Below, piece by piece: positions 1,393 through 56,138 of a stretch of 64,000 nt of DNA (positions are counted from its first letter, which is position 1; each line of letters begins with the position of its first letter). The translations under genes were made by a program, and so were the position numbers. Under the pieces are notes generated by a model. The model worked only from the letters and a program-made list of their open reading frames with translations. It made no database searches and was not told where the DNA came from. The DNA is from an uncultured Alphaproteobacteria bacterium (GTDB lineage: Bacteria > Pseudomonadota > Alphaproteobacteria > RF32 > CAG-239), in assembly GCA_944391495.1 (NCBI GenBank), contig CALXTU010000004.1:5041-69040 (forward strand). Direction: 5' to 3'.

Positions 1393-1717
1393 AATTTTGT
1401 CCTCTTTTTAGAACAGAAAGGAATATCAAGGATGATAGGGGAAAAAACAACATTCCGGCAACAGCTGGAAAAATTACAAAGAGCGGGCGAGGAAAAGAGG
1501 CTTAAAGCATTGCAGGCCAAATATCCGAACCCGAATAATATTGATTACGGCAATATGAGCCTGCGCGACGAGTTGCAAACACGTTTTGATTTAGACGAGA
1601 TGAACAATCTCTCAACCAAGCTCGGCGCACCGAGCGGTTTGGCGGTCGGCAATGATAACGGCGCGCCGGTTCAAGACTTGAGCCAACGCCTGTCCGGCAA
1701 CGATACAGAGGCACAAA
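1393..1717. repeat. Repeat Z copy 1, covering the 5' leader and conserved toxin N-terminal domain
   Basis: Near-identical to 2628-2950. The first 33 codons are identical and the next ~60 codons are similar. Confidence 0.8.
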
Positions 1718-2214
1718 ACAGCTTTTATAAGCCTTTATCCAGACCAAATAAAGATAATGCCAATTGTTATATGACATTTGATGGACAAAGTTTAAATCTT
1801 GTAGGCGGCAATCCAACACATCAATACACATTAAATGCGATGTCCGGAAATCCTGATTATCAGGCCAGACAATATCAGTCAAAAAAGTATTTGGGTCCGA
1901 TACCGGAAGGAACATATTATGCCGCGCAAAATCAAAGACAAATAATTGATCCGATAAATGCCGCAGCAGGCATTATAAATGAAGGAAATTGGCGTAAATC
2001 TATCCCCGCATGGGGATTAAGACGAGTTTGGCTGCAGCCAGACATAAACACAAATACTTATGGTCGAAGTGGCTTTTCAATTCACGGAGGTTGGAAAAAA
2101 GGATCGGCAGGTTGCATAGATATTCCATGGCAAACCGGAAAGCTTAGTCGGTATTTAGATGATTGTCAGGATAACGTTCCGGTTTATGTAAAATATACCA
2201 AGGAGAAATGGTGA
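1432..2214 (+). CDS. Polymorphic toxin A: conserved N-terminal domain plus Tlde1/DUF2778-like C-terminal domain
   Basis: Residues 1-95 are shared with the ORF at 2665. The C-terminus carries GPIPEGTYY and GFSIHGGWKKGSAGCID, a His-x10-Cys arrangement like the LD-transpeptidase-fold effector Tlde1. AAGGA ribosome-binding site. Confidence 0.6.
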   Translation: MIGEKTTFRQQLEKLQRAGEEKRLKALQAKYPNPNNIDYGNMSLRDELQTRFDLDEMNNLSTKLGAPSGLAVGNDNGAPVQDLSQRLSGNDTEAQNSFYKPLSRPNKDNANCYMTFDGQSLNLVGGNPTHQYTLNAMSGNPDYQARQYQSKKYLGPIPEGTYYAAQNQRQIIDPINAAAGIINEGNWRKSIPAWGLRRVWLQPDINTNTYGRSGFSIHGGWKKGSAGCIDIPWQTGKLSRYLDDCQDNVPVYVKYTKEKW

Positions 2215-2564
2215 TGAACAAAGCCAAAGTGTATGAAAGGTTGCAGAAAATAAAAACATTTATCAAGCTTTTCAAGTGGTATATCTGTTTTTATATTTTA
2301 TACTTTTTGATATTAGTAAAAGAATATTTTTATCCGCCGGCCAAAGACGATCAAATTTGGGGTGCCCAAGAAACGATGAGCGATTGGAATTACCAGAATC
2401 AAGAGTTGTATCTTGAGTCAATAAAAATAGATATTGGAATTTCAATTTTAATTTTTTTGTTGGCGCTTAGCAATATGCAAAACTATCCGCGAATAGCCAA
2501 ACTGATTTTGCTATATCCATGGTTTATGGCACTATGGAATATAATTGAGTATGAATATATGTAA
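2214..2564 (+). CDS. Putative immunity protein A (N-terminal TM helix), translationally coupled to toxin A
   Basis: ATG 2214 overlaps the toxin stop (TGATG), 8 nt after AGGAG. It is a predicted membrane protein whose last ~29 codons lie inside repeat X. Confidence 0.5.
   Translation: MNKAKVYERLQKIKTFIKLFKWYICFYILYFLILVKEYFYPPAKDDQIWGAQETMSDWNYQNQELYLESIKIDIGISILIFLLALSNMQNYPRIAKLILLYPWFMALWNIIEYEYM
2472..2558. repeat. Repeat X copy 1
   Basis: 87 bp, ~95% identical to 4308-4396. Confidence 0.8.
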
Positions 2565-2633: not shown

Positions 2634-2950
2634 CCGTTTTTTAGAACAGAAAGGAATATCAAGGATGATAGGGGAAAAAACAACATTCCGGCAACAGCTG
2701 GAAAAATTACAAAGAGCGGGCGAGGAAAAGAGGCTTAAAGCATTGCAGGCCAAATATCCGAACCCTGATAATATTGACTACGGCAATATGAGCCTGCGCA
2801 ATGAATTGCAGACGCGCTTTGATCTGAACGAGATGAACAACCTATCCGCCAAACTCGGCACATCAAACGGTTTTACTGTTGGTAATGATAACAGCGCACC
2901 GGTTCAAGACTTGAGCCAACGCCTGTCCGGCAATGACAAAGGAACACAAA
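2628..2950. repeat. Repeat Z copy 2
   Basis: See copy 1. Confidence 0.8.
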
Positions 2951-3324
2951 ACGGTTTTTATGCTGCTCTCGGCAAACCGACGCCAAATTACATTCCGAAA
3001 AGCCATATCCTGGAAATAGCTGGTGCCGGCCTGCAAGGTTTCGGTAAAGGAATTGAAAGTGGAATGTTAACGGCGGTTAATGGTGCGACAAACGACTACT
3101 ATAATAAATTAAGTTCAAAATATTTAGGGGATTATTATAACAAGAATCAACGTCAAATTCAGCGGCAAGCGGAGGCGGCAGGCTTAGGTCAAGCCAACCA
3201 GATAGCTAATGATGTCATAGAATACGGTGCAAGTGCCTGGGCAGATACCAAAACCGCCGGTCTTTTATCAAGTAATTTATTTAATCAACCATGGGCGACA
3301 AATTGGTTGAAGAAGTTAAAATAA
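2665..3324 (+). CDS. Polymorphic toxin B: same N-terminal domain, Gly/Asn/Tyr-rich glycine-zipper-like C-terminus
   Basis: The N-terminal ~95 aa are near-identical to toxin A. The C-terminus (AGAGLQGFGKGIESG...) is unrelated to toxin A. Confidence 0.55.
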   Translation: MIGEKTTFRQQLEKLQRAGEEKRLKALQAKYPNPDNIDYGNMSLRNELQTRFDLNEMNNLSAKLGTSNGFTVGNDNSAPVQDLSQRLSGNDKGTQNGFYAALGKPTPNYIPKSHILEIAGAGLQGFGKGIESGMLTAVNGATNDYYNKLSSKYLGDYYNKNQRQIQRQAEAAGLGQANQIANDVIEYGASAWADTKTAGLLSSNLFNQPWATNWLKKLK

Positions 3325-3391: not shown

Positions 3392-3925
3392 ATGCCCTAT
3401 CCAGATAAACAAGCAATATTCAGCCGCATAAAAGAACTTTTGTTGCACTATGTTTTTTCATTCAAGGGTTTTGCAAACGGCTTGCAATTTGGTATAGCCA
3501 CTTCAATAGCATTTATATCTAATGATATTTTAAGCAAGTTGGATGTTTCTTTAACAATACGCAATTTTATTTATGGCTATATAATGCTGGTCGCATTTCA
3601 AAAAAGATGTCGGGATATCAACATCAAAGGGACATTAATAATAATTTTTATAACACTTGCTTTCTTTTATGTGGCAATATTTGAAGCACTTAAGCTTGAT
3701 ATGTATGGTTATTTGGATACAATATCAAAATTTTTCCTTCACGCATATGCATTTCTTGTTCTGACCATGATGATTTTACCATCATCACAAATCAAAAATG
3801 CCGAATTGACCAGCCCGTTGTTAAAATACCCGTATTTATACGTGTTAGTGTGTATTGGCATATGCCTTTGGGGTATATCCGTGGTATCAGAACATCAAGA
3901 TGAAATTATCCGAGCGGTAACATAA
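3392..3925 (+). CDS. Putative immunity protein B (polytopic membrane protein)
   Basis: 177 aa with 4-5 hydrophobic helices and an AAAGGA ribosome-binding site. It lies directly downstream of toxin B, and its 3' end runs into repeat Y. Confidence 0.45.
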   Translation: MPYPDKQAIFSRIKELLLHYVFSFKGFANGLQFGIATSIAFISNDILSKLDVSLTIRNFIYGYIMLVAFQKRCRDINIKGTLIIIFITLAFFYVAIFEALKLDMYGYLDTISKFFLHAYAFLVLTMMILPSSQIKNAELTSPLLKYPYLYVLVCIGICLWGISVVSEHQDEIIRAVT

Positions 3926-4018: not shown

Positions 4019-4294
4019 ATGATAAGTATTAACCCCCAAAAAATAACACAATATCTGCGGAAGGCAATTAAAATGGCAAGCCTTGTTATCGGACTGACCA
4101 TAATAGCCATAATCTGCTATATTATAGGTTATTTGCTAACAGATAAGGAGGGATGGTGTTTAAGTGAAGGACATGGTGTTTGGGATGCCGACAGACAAGA
4201 ATGCAGGCAAGATTGTCTGACTTGGCGTAAAGATATCGGTTGTGTTCCGATAACTGAAGAGAATATCAGAAAAAAAGAAAAAGGATTATTATAA
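4019..4294 (+). CDS. Small TM plus 4-Cys protein (possible orphan immunity protein)
   Basis: 91 aa with one TM helix and a Cys-rich tail. It sits between repeat Y copy 2 and repeat X copy 2. Confidence 0.3.
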   Translation: MISINPQKITQYLRKAIKMASLVIGLTIIAIICYIIGYLLTDKEGWCLSEGHGVWDADRQECRQDCLTWRKDIGCVPITEENIRKKEKGLL

Positions 4295-4307: not shown

Positions 4308-4396
4308 AATATGCAAAACTATCCGCGATTGGCCAAACTGATTTTGCTATATCCATGGTTTATGGCGCTATGGAATATAATTGAGTATGAATATTT
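4308..4396. repeat. Repeat X copy 2 (terminal copy next to hisS)
   Basis: See copy 1. Confidence 0.8.
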
Positions 4397-4432
4397 GCGA
4401 AAGCAGAATGTTAACGGCAGGAAAGGGGCAAA

Positions 4433-5743
4433 TCAGTTTAACAGAACCTCGGCCAGCGCGGCGGCATCAAGGCTTTTTTGCTCTCCGGATGCCATATCTT
4501 TGAGGCTGTAAAGCTTGGTCTTGGCTTCCTCTTCGCCGATGATAATCAGATACGGCACGCCGATTTTGTTGGCATATTCCATTTTCTTTTTGAACTTGCA
4601 TTGCCGATACATAACGTCAACCGGAATATTCTTTTGCCGCAGTTTGCCGGCCAGGCTGACGGCCTCATCGGTGAAAGCGGCGTCTTGCGTGATAATCAGC
4701 GCCTTGTCGGGCGTCAGAACCTTAATTGGCAGCAGATTATTGGCGCGCAACTGGTCAAACAACCGTGTCAGGCCGATAGATATGCCGACGCCGGGAAATT
4801 TCTTGTCCATAAACACCGAAGACAAATTATCATAGCGGCCGCCGGAACAAACCGAGCCGAACTGCGGATATTCGTCAAAAAAGGTCTCATAAACCGTGCC
4901 GGTATAATAGTCCAACCCGCGGGTGATACTCAGATCAATCTGCATATTAGTCGCCGGCAGTCCGAGGTTTTGCGCCTGCGAAACAACCGTCTTGAGCTCG
5001 TTCAGGCCTTCGGCAAACACACCGTCTTTAATGTCAAAACCTTCAAGTTTTGCTATAATTTGCTCGTTTGAACCGTTGATTTTGATAAAATCAAGCAATC
5101 TTTGCCGTTGCGCTTCTTCCAGTCCCAAATCATTGAGCTCGCCCAAAAAGGCCTCTTCGGGAATTTTTTTGATTTTATCAACCAGCCGCAAGACGTCGAC
5201 CGTTTTGTCGGCAATGCCGAGATATTCCAAAAAGCCGCTCAAAAGCTTACGGTTGTTGATATAGATTTTAAAAGCCGGCAGCTCCAGCTTGCTGAATACC
5301 GTATAAATCACCGCCAGAACTTCCGCGTCATAAATAATATTCAGCTCGTCGCGGTCGATAATGTCGATATCGCATTGATAAAATTCGCGGAACCGGCCTT
5401 TTTGCGGGCGTTCGCCGCGGTATACCTTGCCGATTTGATAACGTTTGAACGGAAAGGTCAGTTCATTGTTATAGAGCGCGACATATTTGGCCAGCGGCAC
5501 CGTCAGGTCAAAACGCATGGCAATATCGGTGTCACCTTTTTTAAACTCGTAAATTTGTTTTTCCGTCTCGCCGCCGGATTTTGAGAGCAAAACTTCCGCC
5601 AGCTCCAACACCGGCGTATCAAGCGGCGCAAATCCGAATAATTCGTAAGTATGGGCAATGACGGCTTTCATGTGATTAAAAACAAGTTGCTCCTGCGGCA
5701 AAAGTTCCATAAACCCCTGTAACGTACGTGCGGTCATTGTCAT
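4433..5743 (-). CDS. hisS: Histidine--tRNA ligase
   Basis: Class II aaRS motifs are present. The start is taken at the internal Met (MTMTARTLQGF) after GGAGA; the longer ORF upstream has no similarity. Confidence 0.9.
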   Translation of the reverse strand: MTMTARTLQGFMELLPQEQLVFNHMKAVIAHTYELFGFAPLDTPVLELAEVLLSKSGGETEKQIYEFKKGDTDIAMRFDLTVPLAKYVALYNNELTFPFKRYQIGKVYRGERPQKGRFREFYQCDIDIIDRDELNIIYDAEVLAVIYTVFSKLELPAFKIYINNRKLLSGFLEYLGIADKTVDVLRLVDKIKKIPEEAFLGELNDLGLEEAQRQRLLDFIKINGSNEQIIAKLEGFDIKDGVFAEGLNELKTVVSQAQNLGLPATNMQIDLSITRGLDYYTGTVYETFFDEYPQFGSVCSGGRYDNLSSVFMDKKFPGVGISIGLTRLFDQLRANNLLPIKVLTPDKALIITQDAAFTDEAVSLAGKLRQKNIPVDVMYRQCKFKKKMEYANKIGVPYLIIIGEEEAKTKLYSLKDMASGEQKSLDAAALAEVLLN

Positions 5744-5879: not shown

Positions 5880-7169
5880 TTATTTTTTTCCGTGATATTT
5901 CATTTGCGGCGCCAGATAGGCACAGGGACCGAACAGCAGAGCAGTGTATTGCTTCTGGTTCAGATTGTTTCTGCCGCCCCAGAGAAGTATGGCTTGTTTG
6001 TTTCCGCTGCGCATGAGCTTGATGATATGTGCATCATCATAAAAGCCCTCCGCGGCAAATATCTCGGCCCAGGCAGGGTTTTCCAGCGACATATCCTGAA
6101 CTTTGCCGCCGATTTTTTTGCCGTTGATTTTAATACATTTCAGCAACCCTGCGACATCATTTCTCGGTCCTTGTTCTGCCAGAGGTTTGAACCACTTAGC
6201 CTGAGCATTCTCTTCCATAATGTCAAAGAGTCGTTGTTGCAGTTCCGGTGCCGCCAAATCATACAAGGTTAAAGGCAGTTTGTCTTCTTTGGCCAGATTA
6301 AGCAGCGTTTCCGGCCGGCAAAGCTTGTCCGAGAGTCTGACGGAAATCTCCTTCGGCAAAGCGGTCAGAAGTTGATCTGCTGCTGCTCGATGCCGGTCGT
6401 TGATTAATCGTTCAATCAACCGTTCGACAAGGTCGTATTGCCGGAGCCTCAGCCAGTAATTGGCCATTTTATTGGCAACGGCCAAAGAGTCGGCATCGTC
6501 AGCCCAGACGTTAAAGTCAGGAAGCTGCACCAGCTGTTCTGCCGGTATGTTCGGCCGGTAAGTCTTGTTTTTGAAAAGCAGGGACATTGCCGCTGCAGCT
6601 GTTTTCTGCAGATCGCCGGTAGCAAATAAGGCGTCTTGCCTTAATATTTTGTCCAGACCTTGCAGGATATCAACGCTGTAACCGACAACCAGCCGGCCGA
6701 ACAGCATCGTTCTGGCTTCTCCGCTCAGTCTTGCGACGGTTTTGTCATAGAAGCTTCCCGATTGTTTCTTAAGCAGTACGGGAACCCACTTTTTGTCGCT
6801 GTTGCAGACATGGACAATCTCGTCGTTTGACAGCGTGTAGCCTTTACTGGCAACGGCTCTGTCTTGTGCCGTCTCATTGTTAAAAGCAGCATAAAATTCC
6901 TCGCTGTTGCGGATTTCGTCAACAAACAGCTCCCAGAGTTTCTCGTCTTTCAGGCATTTTAGCCTGGTTGCCGGCCGCCAGAGGTGTTCAGCCATCCGGC
7001 GGAAGCGGTAATTTGGTGTCTTGCTGAGGATTTTCATCTCTCTTTTGTGGGAGAGAAGAAAATACGAGGCATAAAAGTTGCCTTTTTTTGTGTGACGTAA
7101 GGCCCATGCCGGAAATAATTTAACAACCGGAGCGACGGCTGAAACAGCCATTGTTTTAATTGAATACAT
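5880..7169 (-). CDS. Hypothetical protein (429 aa)
   Basis: Long ORF with native-looking codon usage. No recognisable domain. Confidence 0.45.
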   Translation of the reverse strand: MYSIKTMAVSAVAPVVKLFPAWALRHTKKGNFYASYFLLSHKREMKILSKTPNYRFRRMAEHLWRPATRLKCLKDEKLWELFVDEIRNSEEFYAAFNNETAQDRAVASKGYTLSNDEIVHVCNSDKKWVPVLLKKQSGSFYDKTVARLSGEARTMLFGRLVVGYSVDILQGLDKILRQDALFATGDLQKTAAAAMSLLFKNKTYRPNIPAEQLVQLPDFNVWADDADSLAVANKMANYWLRLRQYDLVERLIERLINDRHRAAADQLLTALPKEISVRLSDKLCRPETLLNLAKEDKLPLTLYDLAAPELQQRLFDIMEENAQAKWFKPLAEQGPRNDVAGLLKCIKINGKKIGGKVQDMSLENPAWAEIFAAEGFYDDAHIIKLMRSGNKQAILLWGGRNNLNQKQYTALLFGPCAYLAPQMKYHGKK

Positions 7170-10901: not shown

Positions 10902-12207
10902 AGATTTGGCCGATAAAAACATCATCATCTGGGGGCTCGGCACTGAGGGCCGTGCCGTTAAAGACTACCTCGAAAAACATCGGCTCGGCCGCAATATATG
11001 GATTTATAATGATGCCGACGGCGTTGAGCGTCTGAACGAACTGGCCTCCCGGGCCGATGTTCTGGTGCGTTCTCCCGGGGTGAGTATTTATAAGCCGGAG
11101 TTTCTGCGCTTAAAGGAGCAGGGGCTTGCCATAACCTCCAGCACCAACCTGTTTTTGGCCGAGATGAAAGCCAACCGTCCGCACACCAGAGTTATCGGTG
11201 TCACCGGTTCCAAGGGTAAATCAACCAGTGTCAGCATGATGTATCATATGATGCAAGGGCTGGGGTTGAAAGTAGCCCTCGGCGGCAACATCGGTAAAGC
11301 GCTGATAGAACTGGTCGACGAGGATAACGATTACGTTATCGGCGAATTTTCGAGTTATCAGGCGTCGGATTTGGAAAATTCGCCCGATGTGGTAATGTTT
11401 ACCAACCTGTTTTCAGTGCATACCGACTGGCACGGCGGGCATGAGGGCTATTGCCGCGACAAAGTGCATCTGGCCGCCAAGGCCGGTATGGCGGTGGTTA
11501 ACGCCGAAAACGCCGAGCTGATGCACTACACGTCGGATTTGCCGCACCGTATGTTTTACCAAAAAGAGGAGGGCTTTCACGCCGTCGGCAAAGAGCTCTA
11601 TTATCAGAACGAGCCGGTCTGCAATATAGATTCGCTGCGGATAAGCGGCAATCACAACATGGCCAATCTGGCCGGCGTTATGACGGTTTTGGACTATCTG
11701 GGACTGGACTGGCGGCGGGCGTTGAGCTTTTTGCCGTCGTTTGAGCCGCTGCCGCACCGCCTGCAAAAAATCGGCCGCGTTGGCAATATCCTGTTCATCA
11801 ACGACAGCATTTCCACCGCGCCGGAAGCGGCTATCGGCGGTATGCAGAGTTTTGACGACACTATGGCGATAATATCCGGCGGAATTGAAAACAAACAGGA
11901 CTATACCGACTACGCCAAATTTATCGAGGCCAACCCCAAGGTTAAGGTGGCGGTAACGCTGTTCCAATGCGGTCATCAGATTGCCGAAAGTATCAGAAAA
12001 TATGTCCGCCGGCCGGATTTTAAATTGATTGAGGCCGAGAGCTTGCAAGAAGCTGTCAACGCCGCCTATAAAGAATTGCAAAAAGTCGGCGGCACGCTGG
12101 TTTTGTTCTCGCCGACAGCGCCGAGTTTCGGCTATTACAAAAACTTTATGGAGCGCGGCGAAGACTTTATTAATTGTGTTAAAAAGCTTGCCGCCGGTGT
12201 CAAATAA
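10891..12207 (+). CDS. murD: Mur ligase family protein, MurD-like
   Basis: GLGTEG, the GVTGSKGKST P-loop, EFSSYQ and NDSISTAP motifs are present. The AGGAG ribosome-binding site and start overlap the 3' end of the channel gene by 11 nt. Confidence 0.65.
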   Translation: MLIKDLADKNIIIWGLGTEGRAVKDYLEKHRLGRNIWIYNDADGVERLNELASRADVLVRSPGVSIYKPEFLRLKEQGLAITSSTNLFLAEMKANRPHTRVIGVTGSKGKSTSVSMMYHMMQGLGLKVALGGNIGKALIELVDEDNDYVIGEFSSYQASDLENSPDVVMFTNLFSVHTDWHGGHEGYCRDKVHLAAKAGMAVVNAENAELMHYTSDLPHRMFYQKEEGFHAVGKELYYQNEPVCNIDSLRISGNHNMANLAGVMTVLDYLGLDWRRALSFLPSFEPLPHRLQKIGRVGNILFINDSISTAPEAAIGGMQSFDDTMAIISGGIENKQDYTDYAKFIEANPKVKVAVTLFQCGHQIAESIRKYVRRPDFKLIEAESLQEAVNAAYKELQKVGGTLVLFSPTAPSFGYYKNFMERGEDFINCVKKLAAGVK

Positions 12208-12209
12208 AA

Positions 12210-12233
12210 AAACACCCGTACGGGTGTTTTTTT
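12210..12233 (+). terminator. Rho-independent terminator
   Basis: acacccg-ta-cgggtgt hairpin followed by a T-tract. Confidence 0.7.
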
Positions 12234-12257
12234 ATAAAAATGGTGCGAGATACTATG

Positions 12258-12290
12258 CAATTATCGGACTAATTTTTATAATGATTTTAA
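12258..12290. repeat. Direct repeat flanking fic (left)
   Basis: gcaattatcggactaatttttat recurs, 23 nt perfect, at 13026-13059. Confidence 0.7.
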
Positions 12291-12392
12291 ACAGCTTTAC
12301 CATAAAATTGAACTTATTAATTGTTAGATTTCTAATAATCATCATTAAAACTTAATTGCTTTTTAGTTTTTTATGTTTAAAATTAAATAAAC

Positions 12393-13019
12393 GTGAAAAA
12401 GAGGGAAATAATGGTTTTAGAAAATAAGTTAAATATCACCAATCAATTAGAGTTGAATAAAATAGAAGAAAAGCTTAGTAAAGAAAAAGCTAAAAAACTT
12501 TTTGACAGTGGTAAAATAAATACTCTTAGAGTCGGTACTTTTGCCGGATTGAAGCAGATTCACAAATTTTTATTTGAAGATATTTATGATTTTGCCGGAA
12601 AAATACGGACTGTTAATCTTTCTAAAGGAAATTTTAGATTTGCGCCGGTTATGTACTTAGAGCAAGCCTTAAAACATATAGATAAAATGCCCCAATCAAC
12701 CTTTGATGAAATTGTTGAAAAATATGTTGAAATGAATATAGCTCATCCTTTTAGAGAAGGAAATGGTCGCGCTACCCGAATTTGGCTGGATTTAATCTTC
12801 AAAAAAGAACTAAAAATGGTGGTTGATTGGAATAAAATTGATAAATCCGACTATCTGTCCGCTATGGAAAGAAGCCCAATTAAAGATATTGAAATAAAAC
12901 ATCTCTTAAAAAATGCCCTTACTGATAGAATTAATGAAAGAGAAGTATTCATGAAAGGAATTGATGTTAGTTATTATTACGAAGGCTATGATGAATACGA
13001 CATCCATAAGCTGATGTAA
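12393..13019 (+). CDS. fic: Fic/Doc family protein (AMPylator-type)
   Basis: Canonical HPFREGNGR Fic motif. Size and layout resemble E. coli Fic. An alternative start exists at 12411. Confidence 0.85.
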
Positions 13020-13025
13020 GATTAA

Positions 13026-13059
13026 GCAATTATCGGACTAATTTTTATGATAATTTTAA
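13026..13059. repeat. Direct repeat flanking fic (right)
   Basis: See left copy. Confidence 0.7.
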
Positions 13060-13412
13060 GCTTTTGAGTAAGAAAATTGAAAATTGTATGCGATGATTGG
13101 CTTACCTTGAGGATATATATTTCTTTTTATCTCTTTTGAATTTTTATAAATTATTTCTTGTAACAAAGTTCCATCAGGCCTGTAACCTCGACTAATGCCA
13201 TCCATTTTGCCGTTTTTATACTGAGCCTCCAAAAGAACTTTTCCATTCGGATAATAGACATACACAATACCATTTATAGGTTCTTTATTAACATTATAGC
13301 GTATTCCATCTATTAGTTTTGTATTTTCCATAGTATACCTATCTTGAGCTAAACAATTACAGCTCAAGATAGATATAAAAAAAATGATTTTCAAAATATT
13401 ATTCATCTTCAA
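13056..13412 (-). CDS. YwqK-family (MORN-variant repeat) secreted protein, immunity-like
   Basis: Signal peptide followed by repeated YxNGK...G..Y units (YYPNGKVLLEAQYKNGKMDG...). Confidence 0.55.
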   Translation of the reverse strand: MKMNNILKIIFFISILSCNCLAQDRYTMENTKLIDGIRYNVNKEPINGIVYVYYPNGKVLLEAQYKNGKMDGISRGYRPDGTLLQEIIYKNSKEIKRNIYPQGKPIIAYNFQFSYSKA

Positions 13413-14337
13413 CTAAATGTTTACATTTTTTCCATTCTTTATGAATATTATCATAAAAATACCAGTTTTCTTTAACATTTTCTGCATATCCTAAAATGTC
13501 AGTACTGGCAGCATTGATACTAGGATAGCTTTTGCCGTTTTTGGGGCAAATGATTTTATCTCCTTCTTTTTTTAATTCGTAGATATTTCCTTTTTGATTA
13601 CCCCTTTTCATACTTCTTTTAATAATGGTCCCTTCGGGAATTTTTTTAGTATCAATTTGACCTTTATATGTTCTGAATATCGGAGAAACAAACTCGGAAA
13701 TAACATCTTTATTATCAGTTTTAAGCTCAGGAGTATTTTCAAATTTTTTAGCATCAAAATTGAAATCTATAGGTGTTTGTAACAAATTCTCATATTTTTC
13801 GGAGAATGTGACACCATCTTGAATATAGTGTATTAAATCAATTAAATTATTAAGATCTGTTCTATATGGAAGTATTAAAGAGTCTTCATATCCATTTGAT
13901 TCTCGAGTTTCTAATTCTGTAGATATAAAATCCCTACATACATTTAATATATTATAAACTTTTTGAATCTCTTTGATTGTTCTTGCAAGTTTTGGATTTG
14001 TTGTTGTTGCTAATAATTCATATTCTCCATTTTCTAAAGCAGAATAAATTTCATAAGTATCTTGTTTTTTTACAATAATATTAGATTGAGGAATGTTATT
14101 ATATGTTTGTATTAAATCAAGCATCAATTGGCAAGCTAATGCTTGTTTTCCTAATTTTGATATATCGGTTCTTCCTGATAGCCAATTATTTGCGGTAGAT
14201 TCGGAAACATCTAATAAATTAGAAATTTCTTCAGCATCACTATGTTTGTTTAAGTCAAAATTATCAACATCAATAGCTTTATTTTTTGCTATTTCTTTTA
14301 AAAATTTTTCAGCTTCATAATATGTAAAGTTTTTCAT
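13399..14337 (-). CDS. HTH (XRE-like) domain protein with unknown C-terminal domain
   Basis: A helix-turn-helix at about residues 30-65. The 3' end overlaps the ywqK-like gene. Confidence 0.45.
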   Translation of the reverse strand: MKNFTYYEAEKFLKEIAKNKAIDVDNFDLNKHSDAEEISNLLDVSESTANNWLSGRTDISKLGKQALACQLMLDLIQTYNNIPQSNIIVKKQDTYEIYSALENGEYELLATTTNPKLARTIKEIQKVYNILNVCRDFISTELETRESNGYEDSLILPYRTDLNNLIDLIHYIQDGVTFSEKYENLLQTPIDFNFDAKKFENTPELKTDNKDVISEFVSPIFRTYKGQIDTKKIPEGTIIKRSMKRGNQKGNIYELKKEGDKIICPKNGKSYPSINAASTDILGYAENVKENWYFYDNIHKEWKKCKHLVEDE

Positions 14338-14649
14338 GTTTTTCTCCTAAAAAATATTAAATATGCAAAACATATGCATTATTTTTTATAAAATGTCAAT
14401 AGCAATTTTATTACTTTTTAATAAATGCTACAATTCATTAATGAAAAAATAAAACTATTAGCGCTGTTTTATTTATTTTTTCATTATACTTATAAAAAAT
14501 ATCACATTTTATATGATTGGAATTTGAAATGGTAAATTATAAAAGCTTTATTTTCTTAGTTTTCGCTTAAAAAGTCCGATAAGTTTATAAAAATCGTCAA
14601 ATTAAAAACATCTAAAATCGGACTGATTGAAATCCTTGGAATACATACA

Positions 14650-14676
14650 AAAAAAGCACCTCAAAGGGTGCATTAT
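14650..14676 (-). terminator. Terminator downstream of tRNA-Thr
   Basis: gcaccctttgaggtgc hairpin followed by a T-tract on the minus strand. Confidence 0.5.
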
Positions 14677-14682
14677 CAAAAA

Positions 14683-14758
14683 TGGTGCCGCAGAGTGGAC
14701 TCGAACCACCGACCTATTGATTACGAATCAATTGCTCTACCAGCTGAGCTACTACGGC
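14683..14758 (-). tRNA. tRNA-Thr (anticodon CGU)
   Basis: A cloverleaf can be drawn by hand: a 7-bp acceptor stem, anticodon loop TTCGTAA, a GGTTCGAGTCC T-arm and an encoded CCA. Confidence 0.9.
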
Positions 14759-14903
14759 ATCAGGCAAATTCGGAAACCCTTTTATTATACTTTTTTTCTT
14801 TTTGCAAGTCTTTTTATGCGGTTTGTGATTTTTGCAGTAATTTAATTCTCTTGAAAAATTGTTTTTACGAACTTTCGCCGATAGGTTACGGAACTTTGTT
14901 GTA

Positions 14904-14934
14904 GAAAAGACCCCCTGAGTTTTTGCTCAGGGTT
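14904..14934 (-). terminator. Terminator after dut
   Basis: ccctgagcaaaaactcaggg hairpin followed by a T-rich tail on the minus strand. Confidence 0.5.
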
Positions 14935-14940
14935 TCTTTT

Positions 14941-15390
14941 TCATCTGATGCCGCTGGAGCCGAAACCTTTGCCGCCGCGCTCGGTTTCGCTCAAAATTTC
15001 CGCCGCGCAAACCTCCGGCTTAAAAACCGGACACACCACAATCTGCGCGATTCTGTCCAGCGGTTTTATTTCAAAATCAAAATCGTTAAAGTTCATGATA
15101 TTGACCTTTATTTCGCCGCGATAAGCGGCGTCAACCGTACCGAACTGGGCGATAACGCCGTTTTTGGTCAGTCCGGAACGCGGCCGGATCTGAATTTCGG
15201 CCGACCAGCCGTCCGCGGCCGGATACCCCGTCAGCTCCAGACATATTCCGGCCGGAATGGTGGCGATTCCCTTGGCCGGAATAATCCACGATTCGTCAAT
15301 TGCGGCACGAATGTCATAACCGCTGTCGCCGTCTTTGGATGCAAGCGGCGGCAGGCTTGAGTTTAAGTATTTCACTTTTAGTTGCATCAA
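14941..15390 (-). CDS. dut: dUTP diphosphatase
   Basis: dUTPase motifs are present (AGxDLR-like, GLT/VxG, RSGxG, the C-terminal motif V). Confidence 0.9.
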   Translation of the reverse strand: MMQLKVKYLNSSLPPLASKDGDSGYDIRAAIDESWIIPAKGIATIPAGICLELTGYPAADGWSAEIQIRPRSGLTKNGVIAQFGTVDAAYRGEIKVNIMNFNDFDFEIKPLDRIAQIVVCPVFKPEVCAAEILSETERGGKGFGSSGIR

Positions 15391-54515: not shown

Positions 54516-56138
54516 ATGGATCATAAACAATTTCTTCTGGATGAATACAAAAGAGAACGTCAAGAACCGGCATATTTCTCTTTGCCGGACGGGGAGAGTG
54601 TGCTTATGCCCTGCGTCTACCACGGCGATAAAGACGCATTTGTTGATGACTGGCTGTCTTTTCAGAATGAAGAACTGCAGAAATATGATACTCACAATGC
54701 CGCCAACCCGGACAATCCCATAGAAATTCCCGAGCCGTTGAAATATGACGACCTTTATATTTTCCCGCCGTTAAAAGGAGTCCTTAAAAACTGGTCGGAG
54801 CAAAAGATTATCAACAAAGCACTGCGCACGGCCATGCGTAAATACAAAGCGGCAATAAAACAGACGGCGCAAGTTGCCAAAATATATCCGAAAGATGATT
54901 TTATTACCAGTCTGAACAAGGATGCCGTTTCCAGATTAAAAAAACTGCATAACGACTATAAAAAAGAAAAATTAAAACAAAACCTGGCCAGGACTTTCAA
55001 ATTCACGGCTAAACAAACGGCCAATATTCTGGCCGGTGCAACCGGAGCTCTGCCGGCCGCCGCATATTATCTGTTGGATAAAAAAGTGCGCTTTGCCAAA
55101 AGCAAAACCAAGAGTTTTATTGATAATACAGCTTTGCCGTATATTCGCAGAGGTGTTGCAAAGTTCCTGGTCTTGGTATGTCTTACGGGAGCAGTCAACT
55201 TAACGTCTGTCATCAAAGAAAAGCATCAGGACAAAATTGAGCAGCAAATGCTTCAAGCCCGTGAGCAAGCTGAAAAAGAAGCCTTTTTTGCCAAATATCA
55301 AACCACTAACGAGGCCTTTTATAAAAATTATAAACAGGCCAAAAACTTAGAGCAGGAATTTATCTGTCTGTTGTCCTGTTATGAAGATTATCATGAACAG
55401 GCTTATAAATGCCAGGCCGGCAAATGGACCGTCGGCTACGGATCACGGCAGTTGGCTGATGGTACGCCTGTTGTTAAAGGAACCACCGTCACCCGGAAAG
55501 ACGCCGCGGCGGCCGTTACCAAGCATATGGAAAAATACGTCTATCCTCAGCTTTGTCATATTAATAAAGAACTTTCGCCGGAACAGCTGATGGCTGTCAA
55601 TATGTTTATCTACAACACGGACGAAAACGCTTTCCGAAATTCAAAAGTCTGCCGTGCCATTAACGACAATGCCGATGAAACCAAAATGCGGGAGGCCTTT
55701 TCTTACTATCGCAGCGTTAACGGCAAGCGCAGTTACGGTCTGATCAACCGTCGCGGTTTTGAAGGCTATTTATGGAGCTGCGGCAATCTGGCCGATGTTT
55801 TGCTGATGAGCCCCAATCTGGCCGGCAGTCAGGATATCCGCTATTTCGAATATCCAGATACCGATAGTCGCAATCCGCATGAAAATCCGGACGAAACTTT
55901 TGTCGTGCGGCAAAAAGATGAAGTAAAACGGGATTTGAAAAAATTTAAAGTTTCCAATCTTTCGCAGAGCATCTTAGGCAATACCACACCGGAAATTTGT
56001 GATAATTTGTGTGATAAATACGGAATTTATGAAGAAAACAATCAAATCAAACAACTGCAGGTTATCACGGTCGATAATTCTCAAACCGGCAAGGCCATTA
56101 CTTTTGCTCAGGCTCAAAGGTTAAAGGAAAGTCGTTAA
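54516..56138 (+). CDS. Multidomain protein with an internal T4-lysozyme-like (GH24) domain
   Basis: E-x8-C-x5-T spacing (YEDYHEQAYKCQAGKWTVGYGS) and a downstream GH24-like helix (SPEQLMAVNMFIYN). No signal peptide. The N-terminal ~290 aa have no recognisable similarity. Confidence 0.5.
   Translation: MDHKQFLLDEYKRERQEPAYFSLPDGESVLMPCVYHGDKDAFVDDWLSFQNEELQKYDTHNAANPDNPIEIPEPLKYDDLYIFPPLKGVLKNWSEQKIINKALRTAMRKYKAAIKQTAQVAKIYPKDDFITSLNKDAVSRLKKLHNDYKKEKLKQNLARTFKFTAKQTANILAGATGALPAAAYYLLDKKVRFAKSKTKSFIDNTALPYIRRGVAKFLVLVCLTGAVNLTSVIKEKHQDKIEQQMLQAREQAEKEAFFAKYQTTNEAFYKNYKQAKNLEQEFICLLSCYEDYHEQAYKCQAGKWTVGYGSRQLADGTPVVKGTTVTRKDAAAAVTKHMEKYVYPQLCHINKELSPEQLMAVNMFIYNTDENAFRNSKVCRAINDNADETKMREAFSYYRSVNGKRSYGLINRRGFEGYLWSCGNLADVLLMSPNLAGSQDIRYFEYPDTDSRNPHENPDETFVVRQKDEVKRDLKKFKVSNLSQSILGNTTPEICDNLCDKYGIYEENNQIKQLQVITVDNSQTGKAITFAQAQRLKESR

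Follow-up and report, generated by a model that had tools for sequence, protein, structure and literature searches.

A predicted Tlde1-type toxin and its putative membrane immunity protein make up a cassette within a polymorphic-toxin island in an uncultured gut alphaproteobacterium

Tlde1a (STM14_0336, formerly Tae5) belongs to the SPI-6 T6SS of Salmonella Typhimurium, and its structure is available in three PDB entries (7UMA, 7UO3 and 7UO8). It is a single-domain protein of 173 aa without a signal peptide and is accompanied by an adjacent immunity gene, whose product Tldi1a is a periplasmic DUF2195 protein. The roles of its catalytic residues were defined in the structural paper (PMC9638812), according to which H129, located in the (S/T)HGC motif, matters for LD-carboxypeptidase and cross-linking activity. 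A capping subdomain over the active site is an insert specific to Tlde1a. For the Tlde1c/Tae7 branch of the same family, a TM immunity protein has been reported; the members of this branch are sometimes fused to delivery modules (Rhs), often lie away from T6SS genes and have been reported from Enterobacteriaceae, Burkholderiaceae and Pseudomonadaceae. That DUF2778 domains also turn up in polymorphic-toxin cassettes outside the T6SS context was pointed out in the founding preprint.

Systems of three other kinds are of relevance here. Firstly, prophage-encoded polymorphic toxins are known, namely MuF (PMC5576092) and Bxa of Bacteroides (PMC11699363); in these, a conserved N-terminus is combined with interchangeable toxin domains and a downstream immunity gene, in gut bacteria. 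Secondly, the YkuD LD-transpeptidases (PF03734), such as LdtMt5 (PDB 4ZFQ), are distantly related in fold to the toxin described below, and its presumed Cys/His catalytic logic is like theirs. Thirdly, colicin M and pesticin are small proteins without a signal peptide, in which an N-terminal uptake part precedes a C-terminus whose site of action is the periplasm and whose target is the wall or one of its precursors; their immunity proteins are anchored in the membrane and face the periplasm.

Here we describe a toxin gene (toxin A) and the gene directly following it (immunity A) from an uncultured gut alphaproteobacterium. The analysis covers 64 kb of its genome (the whole stretch of 64,000 nucleotides, called the window below) and 10-kb flanks of related loci, which carry numbers beginning with L. 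Coordinates of the features are collected in Table 1. We consider it probable that toxin A and immunity A constitute a polymorphic cassette, the toxin of which would be an LD-peptidase of Tlde1 type acting in the periplasm. The host is a diderm, as can be seen from other genes of the window, which encode LpxK, the Kdo transferase, an OmpA-family protein and DsbD.

Table 1. Features of the toxin island between rplS and hisS (positions in the window)
Feature	Position	Strand	Basis
Repeat copy 1 (35 nt leader and first ~265 nt of toxin A)	1397..1696	+	repeat search
Toxin A CDS	1432..2214	+	ORF call; KD-17 maximum 0.42
N-terminal module, residues 1-64	1432..1623	+	AF2, alignment, family search
G/N/S/Q-rich low-complexity linker, residues 65-108	1624..1755	+	AF2, family comparison
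Tlde1/DUF2778 domain, residues 109-260	1756..2211	+	Pfam PF10908, Foldseek, AF2
GPIPEGTYY motif, residues 155-163	1894..1920	+	ORF translation
Catalytic motif GRSGFSIHGGWKKGSAGCID, residues 211-230	2062..2121	+	profile alignment to Tlde1a
Immunity A, 116 aa, 2-3 TM	2214..2564	+	homologue HMM, synteny, hydropathy
Toxin B, 219 aa	2665..3324	+	ORF call, Pfam, BLASTP
177-aa multi-TM ORF, probable toxin B immunity	3392..3925	+	position, hydropathy
Orphan immunity gene, 91 aa, 1 TM, Cys-rich C-terminus	4019..4294	+	L003/L004 homologues
Remnant of immunity A 3' end, 96% identical	4308..4397	+	repeat search

Toxin A is encoded by an intact ORF of 260 aa with an ATG start. A preliminary description, made from the letters of the DNA, had recognized a Tlde1/DUF2778 domain in its C-terminal half and pointed to two motifs, GPIPEGTYY and HGG...SAGCID; both are present in the ORF. 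The spacing given there has to be corrected, as four residues (WKKG) and not five stand between HGG and SAGCID. Similarly, what had been written as His-x10-Cys is an offset of ten with nine intervening residues: Cys228 is His218+10, and the same offset leads from H121 to C131 in Tlde1a. The family assignment itself holds. Residues 134-231 match the Pfam family of Tlde1a, PF10908 (Tlde1_dom), with 34.4 bits (E 3.3e-8), above the gathering score of 30.1 bits, and the motif and family match is well beyond chance. PF10908 is also matched by 11 of 41 related proteins (best E 3.1e-11). Of the 642 homologues obtained in a database search, most have precomputed PF10908 matches; a few carry the name 'DUF2778 domain-containing protein [Alphaproteobacteria bacterium]'. 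A family profile is needed to reach Tlde1a, as phmmer of the single toxin A sequence against the PDB gave no match to it; the match to uS9 found in that search (E 0.01) is spurious. NCBIfam returned nothing useful for toxin A, and PHROGs gave weak matches alone, to families of unknown function.

The AlphaFold2 model of toxin A, calculated from an alignment of 93 sequences, has a mean pLDDT of 77.5, with values of about 90 across most of the C-terminal domain. When the model was compared with the PDB by Foldseek, a check of the fold that had been proposed together with the assignment, the top three matches were the Tlde1a entries 7uo8, 7uma and 7uo3 (E 1.2e-8 to 1.3e-7, prob 1.0, target TM 0.62-0.64; 22-26% identity over the structural alignment). 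LdtMt5 of M. tuberculosis came next (E 0.019), and beyond these proteins nothing else in the PDB was significant. On the strength of the model, we regard the C-terminal domain as an altered LD-transpeptidase fold of the Tlde1 type. Since the protein does match DUF2778 and its predicted fold is related to that of LD-transpeptidases, the earlier interpretation stands.

The alignment of the family profile places R212, H218, S225, G227 and C228 of toxin A, all located within GRSGFSIHGGWKKGSAGCID, on R115, H121, S128, G130 and C131 of Tlde1a. In the 93 alignment rows, H218 and C228 are kept in 90 each, S225 in 91 and G227 in 92; R212, which precedes the histidine by six residues as in Tlde1a, is kept in 90. 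All 90 homologues that possess the domain retain the active-site residues. In the GPIPEGTYY motif, conservation across 90 homologues is 90% or higher at each of the positions G155, P156, P158, E159, G160 and Y162. The remaining position of the motif is different: Ala226 stands where Tlde1a has H129, which gives SAGC instead of the canonical (S/T)HGC. Across the 93 rows, position 226 is occupied by A (80), R (9), S (2), G (1) or K (1) and in no case by His. Because of this replacement, the handling of the substrate or the spectrum of reactions may differ from Tlde1a. The stretch equivalent to the Tlde1a cap (about residues 172-196) is poorly modelled (pLDDT 45-61); W187 and W194 are conserved, and their alignment to W90 of Tlde1a is gapped. 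Judged by its sequence, the domain is a divergent SAGC branch of the known PF10908/LD-transpeptidase-fold effectors, for which Cys/His LD-peptidase activity would be expected by analogy.

Tlde1a has a single domain, whereas toxin A contains an additional ~108 residues formed by the N-terminal module and the linker. The module is predicted by AlphaFold2 as two long helices (residues 3-30 and 44-64, pLDDT 75-90). The linker is poorly predicted (pLDDT below 50 at residues 72-79 and 89-106) and differs across the family in length and composition. Inspection of hydropathy (KD-17) revealed neither a signal peptide nor a lipobox in toxin A; having no hydrophobic segment, the protein has no Sec signal, and in this respect it is like Tlde1a. 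Two further cysteines, C112 and C245, are near-invariant in the alignment of the toxin A family, which would fit an oxidising compartment.

Like Tlde1a, toxin A has an adjacent gene that is a candidate for immunity. The preliminary description had postulated a TM-anchored downstream partner, and immunity A is indeed a membrane protein by predicted topology, in conserved synteny with the toxin gene. Its start codon is likely ATG 2214 and not ATG 2208 (from which it would have 118 aa); ATG 2214 overlaps the stop codon of toxin A in the form TGATG and has AAGGAG 8 nt upstream. In the hydropathy profile (KD-17), two segments stand out, residues 21-37 with a maximum of 2.06 and residues 71-87 with one of 2.20. 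Six Lys/Arg residues are found in the N-terminus, while the loop 38-72 contains seven Asp/Glu as against two Lys/Arg. From this distribution of charge and the positive-inside rule we infer that the loop faces the periplasm.

An HMM of the immunity protein was compared with seven independent contexts, and in six of them (the window with L001, L004-6, L010, L011, L012-14 and L015-16) it recognised a copy immediately after the Tlde1 gene. Three tandem paralogues of immunity A are present in L010. The exception is the phage variant L007-9, in which the Tlde1 toxin is intact and the same HMM detected no immunity gene beside it. Members of this family of about 115 aa share invariant FKW, W60, Y68, SN and AK positions in the alignment. 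Whereas Tldi1a is a periplasmic DUF2195 protein, immunity A is a TM protein without any match in Pfam, and in its TM segments it agrees with what is reported for the Tlde1c/Tae7 branch. The exact sequence of immunity A occurs in 56 public contigs, compared to 17 for that of toxin A, which fits an immunity gene that is kept without the toxin. These observations support the assignment of immunity A as the putative inner-membrane immunity protein of toxin A.

The cassette is a part of a 3.2-kb island between hisS and a terminator-like hairpin that follows rplS. The repeat at the 5' end of toxin A is 90% identical to positions 2630-2929, which form the 5' end of toxin B, and the two toxins are near-identical over residues 1-100 (BLASTP). 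Toxin B has the N-terminal module and the linker of toxin A, joined to an unrelated Gly/Ala-rich C-terminus that matches nothing in Pfam. Directly after it lies the 177-aa ORF with 3-4 hydrophobic segments, probably the immunity protein for toxin B; its homologue is present in L003 at 1366-1977. The exact sequence of the next, 91-aa ORF was found in 60 public contigs. In L003, an SAA-domain toxin is directly followed by a close homologue of this ORF, and the same order recurs with a more distant homologue in the phage L004; because of the arrangement in L003, we regard the 91-aa ORF of the window as an orphan immunity gene. The immunity A remnant is supported by the immunity HMM, which matches ORF 4311-4511.

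In related MAGs, variants of the island occupy the same site between rplS and hisS. In L001, toxin A has an in-frame internal deletion and its immunity gene is intact; L002 carries a third C-terminal type, and L003 one that resembles serum amyloid A (PF00277). A scan of a genome collection yielded only two related MAG loci. The hallmarks of polymorphic toxin systems in the sense of Zhang et al. (2012, Biol Direct 7:18) are found here, namely a shared N-terminus, interchangeable C-termini, a downstream immunity gene and orphan modules. Toxin A and immunity A are one cassette of a polymorphic-toxin island in which cassettes are exchanged by recombination.

The N-terminal module of toxin A, referred to here as type 1, has the core PDYxNMSLRDELQTRFDLDE, and a few members contain this core twice; the invariant core in the alignment is Y39-x-NMSLRDELQTRFDL-x-E. 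Among 1.84 billion cluster representatives, the type-1 profile found 43 proteins of 57-387 aa. In these, the module is fused to Tlde1, SAA-like, lysozyme-like and Gly-rich C-termini and to several unrecognised ones. No family of Pfam, NCBIfam or PHROG matches it above threshold. EAD7 (PF19960) is matched by 8 of 41 members, with a best E of 0.0056 that is far under the 32-bit cut-off. As all 43 representatives are of toxin size (up to 387 aa), there is no large partner with the same domain, and a homotypic adaptor of the EAD type was rejected. The 24 metagenome loci with the type-1 N-terminus look chromosomal, and a scan of IMG/VR with it gave no confirmed match. Apparently, the type-1 family does not extend beyond gut-associated alphaproteobacterial MAGs. 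In this it differs from the Tlde1c/Tae7 branch with its reported hosts; compared by description, the fusions also differ, being to Rhs in that branch and to a small helical module in toxin A.

Besides type 1, at least three further N-terminal types precede the Tlde1 domain in this subfamily. With one of them, type 2 (GVDHSGFSTRDELEYQ), type 1 has a 20-column motif in common (56% probability in hhalign), which is suggestive of homology, although not a proof. The closest Tlde1 and immunity modules with another N-terminus are located inside phages. In L004-6, such a module directly follows the large terminase, and the major head protein of this phage matches phrog_9953 (E 4e-105); in L010, a contig of IMG/VR, the module lies among structural genes. 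The relatives L004-L010 are encoded by prophages or phages, and their N-terminus is different from that of toxin A. Immediately behind the lysis genes, the same phages have another toxin slot, where the same phage-type N-terminus is combined with an SAA-like or another toxin domain. According to hhalign, this phage-borne N-terminus (type 3) is not related to type 1; the link to phages therefore covers the cargo module alone. The island resembles MuF and Bxa in its modular build, with a conserved N-terminus, exchangeable toxin domains and immunity genes downstream; its cargo, Tlde1 with immunity and SAA with immunity, is also found in phages, at two moron slots. MuF and Bxa are prophage-encoded, whereas the island is chromosomal, without phage genes, and its phage cousins have an unrelated N-terminus.

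We propose the following mode of action. The target of toxin A would be the periplasm of a cell without the immunity protein. There, the active site formed by Cys228 and His218 might attack the stem peptides of peptidoglycan; by analogy with Tlde1a, D-Ala4 would be removed from tetrapeptides, swapped for another D-amino acid, or both. Cross-linking would then be starved and the wall weakened. As the toxin has no signal peptide, the producer's own periplasm should be exposed to incoming toxin alone. Immunity A, translationally coupled to the toxin gene and placed in the inner membrane, should bind toxin A by its conserved acidic loop facing the periplasm, and block it. The N-terminal module would be the part responsible for trafficking.

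How toxin A could reach the periplasm of another cell can be discussed in view of its genomic neighbourhood. The preliminary description had spoken of the T6SS effector Tlde1, of which the family name is justified; the T6SS part comes from precedent and finds no support at the locus. We consider a dedicated non-T6SS route, either release and uptake or an unrecognised contact-dependent mechanism, more likely than transport as T6SS cargo. Inspected by eye against the published consensus, the N-terminus does not fit a double-glycine (PCAT) leader. Autotransporter genes near a type-1 toxin in L022 were considered as a carrier and rejected, because they encode self-contained T5SS proteins.

A dedicated route might be that of a bacteriocin similar to colicin M or pesticin, which is released by some of the cells and uses the N-terminal module and linker for receptor binding and translocation. 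The layout of toxin A does resemble these proteins in its size class (about 200-290 aa), the missing signal peptide, the N-terminal module followed by a disordered Gly/Asn/Ser/Gln-rich stretch, and the pairing of a periplasm-acting killing domain with membrane-anchored immunity, as known from colicin M/Cmi and pesticin/Pim. The phage-borne cousins, moreover, adjoin lysis cassettes, by which they could possibly be released. The resemblance does not extend to sequence or fold, where no relation is detectable, nor to the enzymology. Further, no clear TonB or Tol box was seen by eye at the N-terminus, the island contains no lysis or release gene, and the N-terminal module is predicted to be helical and well ordered, so that the extreme N-terminus is not disordered. 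We therefore find a bacteriocin possible, yet doubtful.

Slightly less likely still, in our view, is a classical T6SS cargo, which would be recognised through its N-terminal module for loading by Hcp, VgrG or an adaptor, with the T6SS elsewhere in the genome. Orphan effector families that share an N-terminal marker and are encoded far from the T6SS cluster do exist, namely MIX, FIX and RIX, and they may be taken as a precedent. Tlde1a itself, as a member of the same family, is a T6SS effector, and the immunity proteins Tai7/Tldi1c likewise have TM segments. According to the preprint, 43-77% of genomes bearing DUF2778 have one such gene near T6SS structural genes, but DUF2778 genes adjoin T1SS, T2SS, T4SS and T5SS genes too. 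The gene of Tlde1a lies in the SPI-6 T6SS, whereas that of toxin A is neither in nor near a T6SS cluster: no T6SS, T1SS or T4SS family was found among annotated neighbours within 10 kb of the related toxins (including L022), and none in those ORFs of the window that were scanned with Pfam. Toxin A and its N-terminal module match none of PAAR, Rhs, MIX or other T6SS-related Pfam domains. The occurrence of the same toxin and immunity module in phages also speaks against T6SS cargo. The probability left over from the bacteriocin and the T6SS cargo we assign to some unrecognised route.

It is very improbable that toxin A is a phage-derived peptidoglycan enzyme, associated with the virion or with lysis, that was left in the chromosome and is not an interbacterial toxin. 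Such an origin might be suspected from the position of the closest relatives with another N-terminus, near terminase or among structural genes of phages, and from the presence of Tlde1-fold proteins in phage proteomes, including domains of large tail proteins. Scans of the rplS-hisS island (ORFs, Pfam, PHROG) found no phage genes, however, and the type-1 N-terminus is absent from the IMG/VR scan. Dedicated, tandem and orphan immunity genes would be expected with a toxin but not with an enzyme of lysis, and the N-terminus is common to toxin domains that do not act on peptidoglycan, such as SAA. The least credible of all is a housekeeping role, in which toxin A would remodel the wall of its own cell as an LD-transpeptidase or LD-carboxypeptidase, since the distant fold relation to YkuD enzymes and the match of one homologue to PF03734 (E 3.4e-5) are outweighed by the lack of any PF03734 match in toxin A itself (Pfam scan), of a signal peptide, lipobox or other export signal and of a PG-binding domain, by its variable presence with a deletion allele in one strain, and by the polymorphic cassette architecture with immunity genes.

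We return to the polymorphic cassette with a Tlde1-type toxin and to its meaning. To the known effector family it adds the divergent SAGC branch, which occurs in gut alphaproteobacteria and their phages. The LD-peptidase warhead and the membrane immunity protein move as one module among at least three to four unrelated N-terminal modules, including phage-borne ones. The type-1 N-terminal module is a tiny family, very narrowly distributed and without a known secretion partner. This small module and its delivery route may be the part that is new. Tentatively, and at somewhat less than even chance, we suggest that it may define an undescribed delivery family of polymorphic toxins, which is not linked to T6SS, has no recognised secretion signal and exchanges its cargo with phage toxins. 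Should the route be found, we would learn by what means uncultured gut Alphaproteobacteria compete, and the catalogue of polymorphic toxins would gain a new trafficking domain.

A sister strain at the same rplS-hisS site (locus L001) carries a toxin A allele with an in-frame internal deletion (P0003). The missing part spans roughly residues 137-210, a central stretch of the Tlde1 domain that precedes the GRSGFSIHGG motif, and the immunity gene beside it is intact. Identical immunity A sequence is present on 56 contigs, compared with 17 for toxin A. Because two extra toxins sharing toxin A's N-terminal module are encoded about 8 kb upstream of the L001 island, before ffh-rpsP-rimM-trmD-rplS, at least four genes with the type-1 module (the roughly 60-aa N-terminus of toxins A and B) occur in one genome. 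The corresponding region lies just beyond the edge of the window.

Toxin B has its N-terminal module in common with toxin A. Its Gly/Ala-rich C-terminus has no family match and may target membranes; the multi-TM ORF that comes after it is its presumed immunity protein. A serum-amyloid-A (SAA) domain (PF00277, best E 1.7e-20 among relatives) forms the C-terminal "toxin" part of chromosomal and phage-borne polymorphic toxins alike. Such a toxin is always followed by a Cys-rich ORF of about 90 aa with a single TM. The window retains this ORF alone, as an orphan lacking the SAA toxin, and its identical sequence occurs on 60 public contigs.

In the phage contig L010, the Tlde1 toxin is followed by three diverged immunity paralogues and then by a lysozyme-like protein, whose N-terminus (VPEYAAYGGVP...) represents a fourth N-terminal type, found also on some Tlde1 proteins, e.g. 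P0054 and P0026. In the phage variant L007, the Tlde1 toxin is intact and no gene of the immunity A family was found across the entire 20-kb locus; downstream of the toxin, a look-alike of a terminator hairpin can be discerned by eye, and the lysis-adjacent slot is occupied by a toxin of a further type together with a 69-aa TM ORF.

Coordinates of the features discussed
Locus	Position	Strand	Feature
Window	2665-3324		toxin B
Window	3392-3925		177-aa multi-TM ORF
Window	4019-4294		~90-aa ORF, orphan
Window	5880-7169	-	429-aa ORF, adjoins hisS
Window	12393-13019		Fic/DOC-domain gene, low-GC island
Window	13399-14337	-	312-aa ORF, low-GC island
Window	54516-56138		540-aa protein; phage-lysozyme domain PF00959, residues 289-414
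L001	1147-1779	-	extra toxin
L001	2050-2937	+	extra toxin
L001	10001-10486		P0003
L003	282-1191		SAA toxin/~90-aa ORF
L004	5871-6744		SAA toxin/~90-aa ORF
L017	10414-11014		SAA toxin/~90-aa ORF
L007	10001-10720		Tlde1 toxin
L010	7645-8785 and 8941-9888		tandem immunity paralogues; then 315-aa lysozyme-like protein
L033	9611-10774		387-aa fusion

Elsewhere in the window, positions 12000-15000 form a low-GC island (28-33% vs about 49% elsewhere) that was probably acquired horizontally; its 312-aa ORF has no family match. The 540-aa protein shows, by eye, a hydrophobic stretch at about residues 170-240, and its gene is solitary, flanked by fabZ-like and membrane genes. The 429-aa ORF has no match in Pfam or NCBIfam; its position is occupied by longer ORFs of visibly similar sequence (481-524 aa) in the related loci L002 and L003, and by a 480-aa ORF in L001.

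Ten metagenome contigs (L033-L042), of which at least two carry a human gut label, encode a 387-aa in-frame fusion of a lipoprotein-like N-terminus (LTGC lipobox), a type-1 module truncated to begin at KTPDY, and a toxin. Since a serine recombinase adjoins it in L033 and L035, the fusion may be a rearrangement product. Further, the PDYxKMSLREELExRF motif is tandemly doubled in some family members (P0172-P0175, P0165), which suggests that a short repeatable helix motif is the functional unit.
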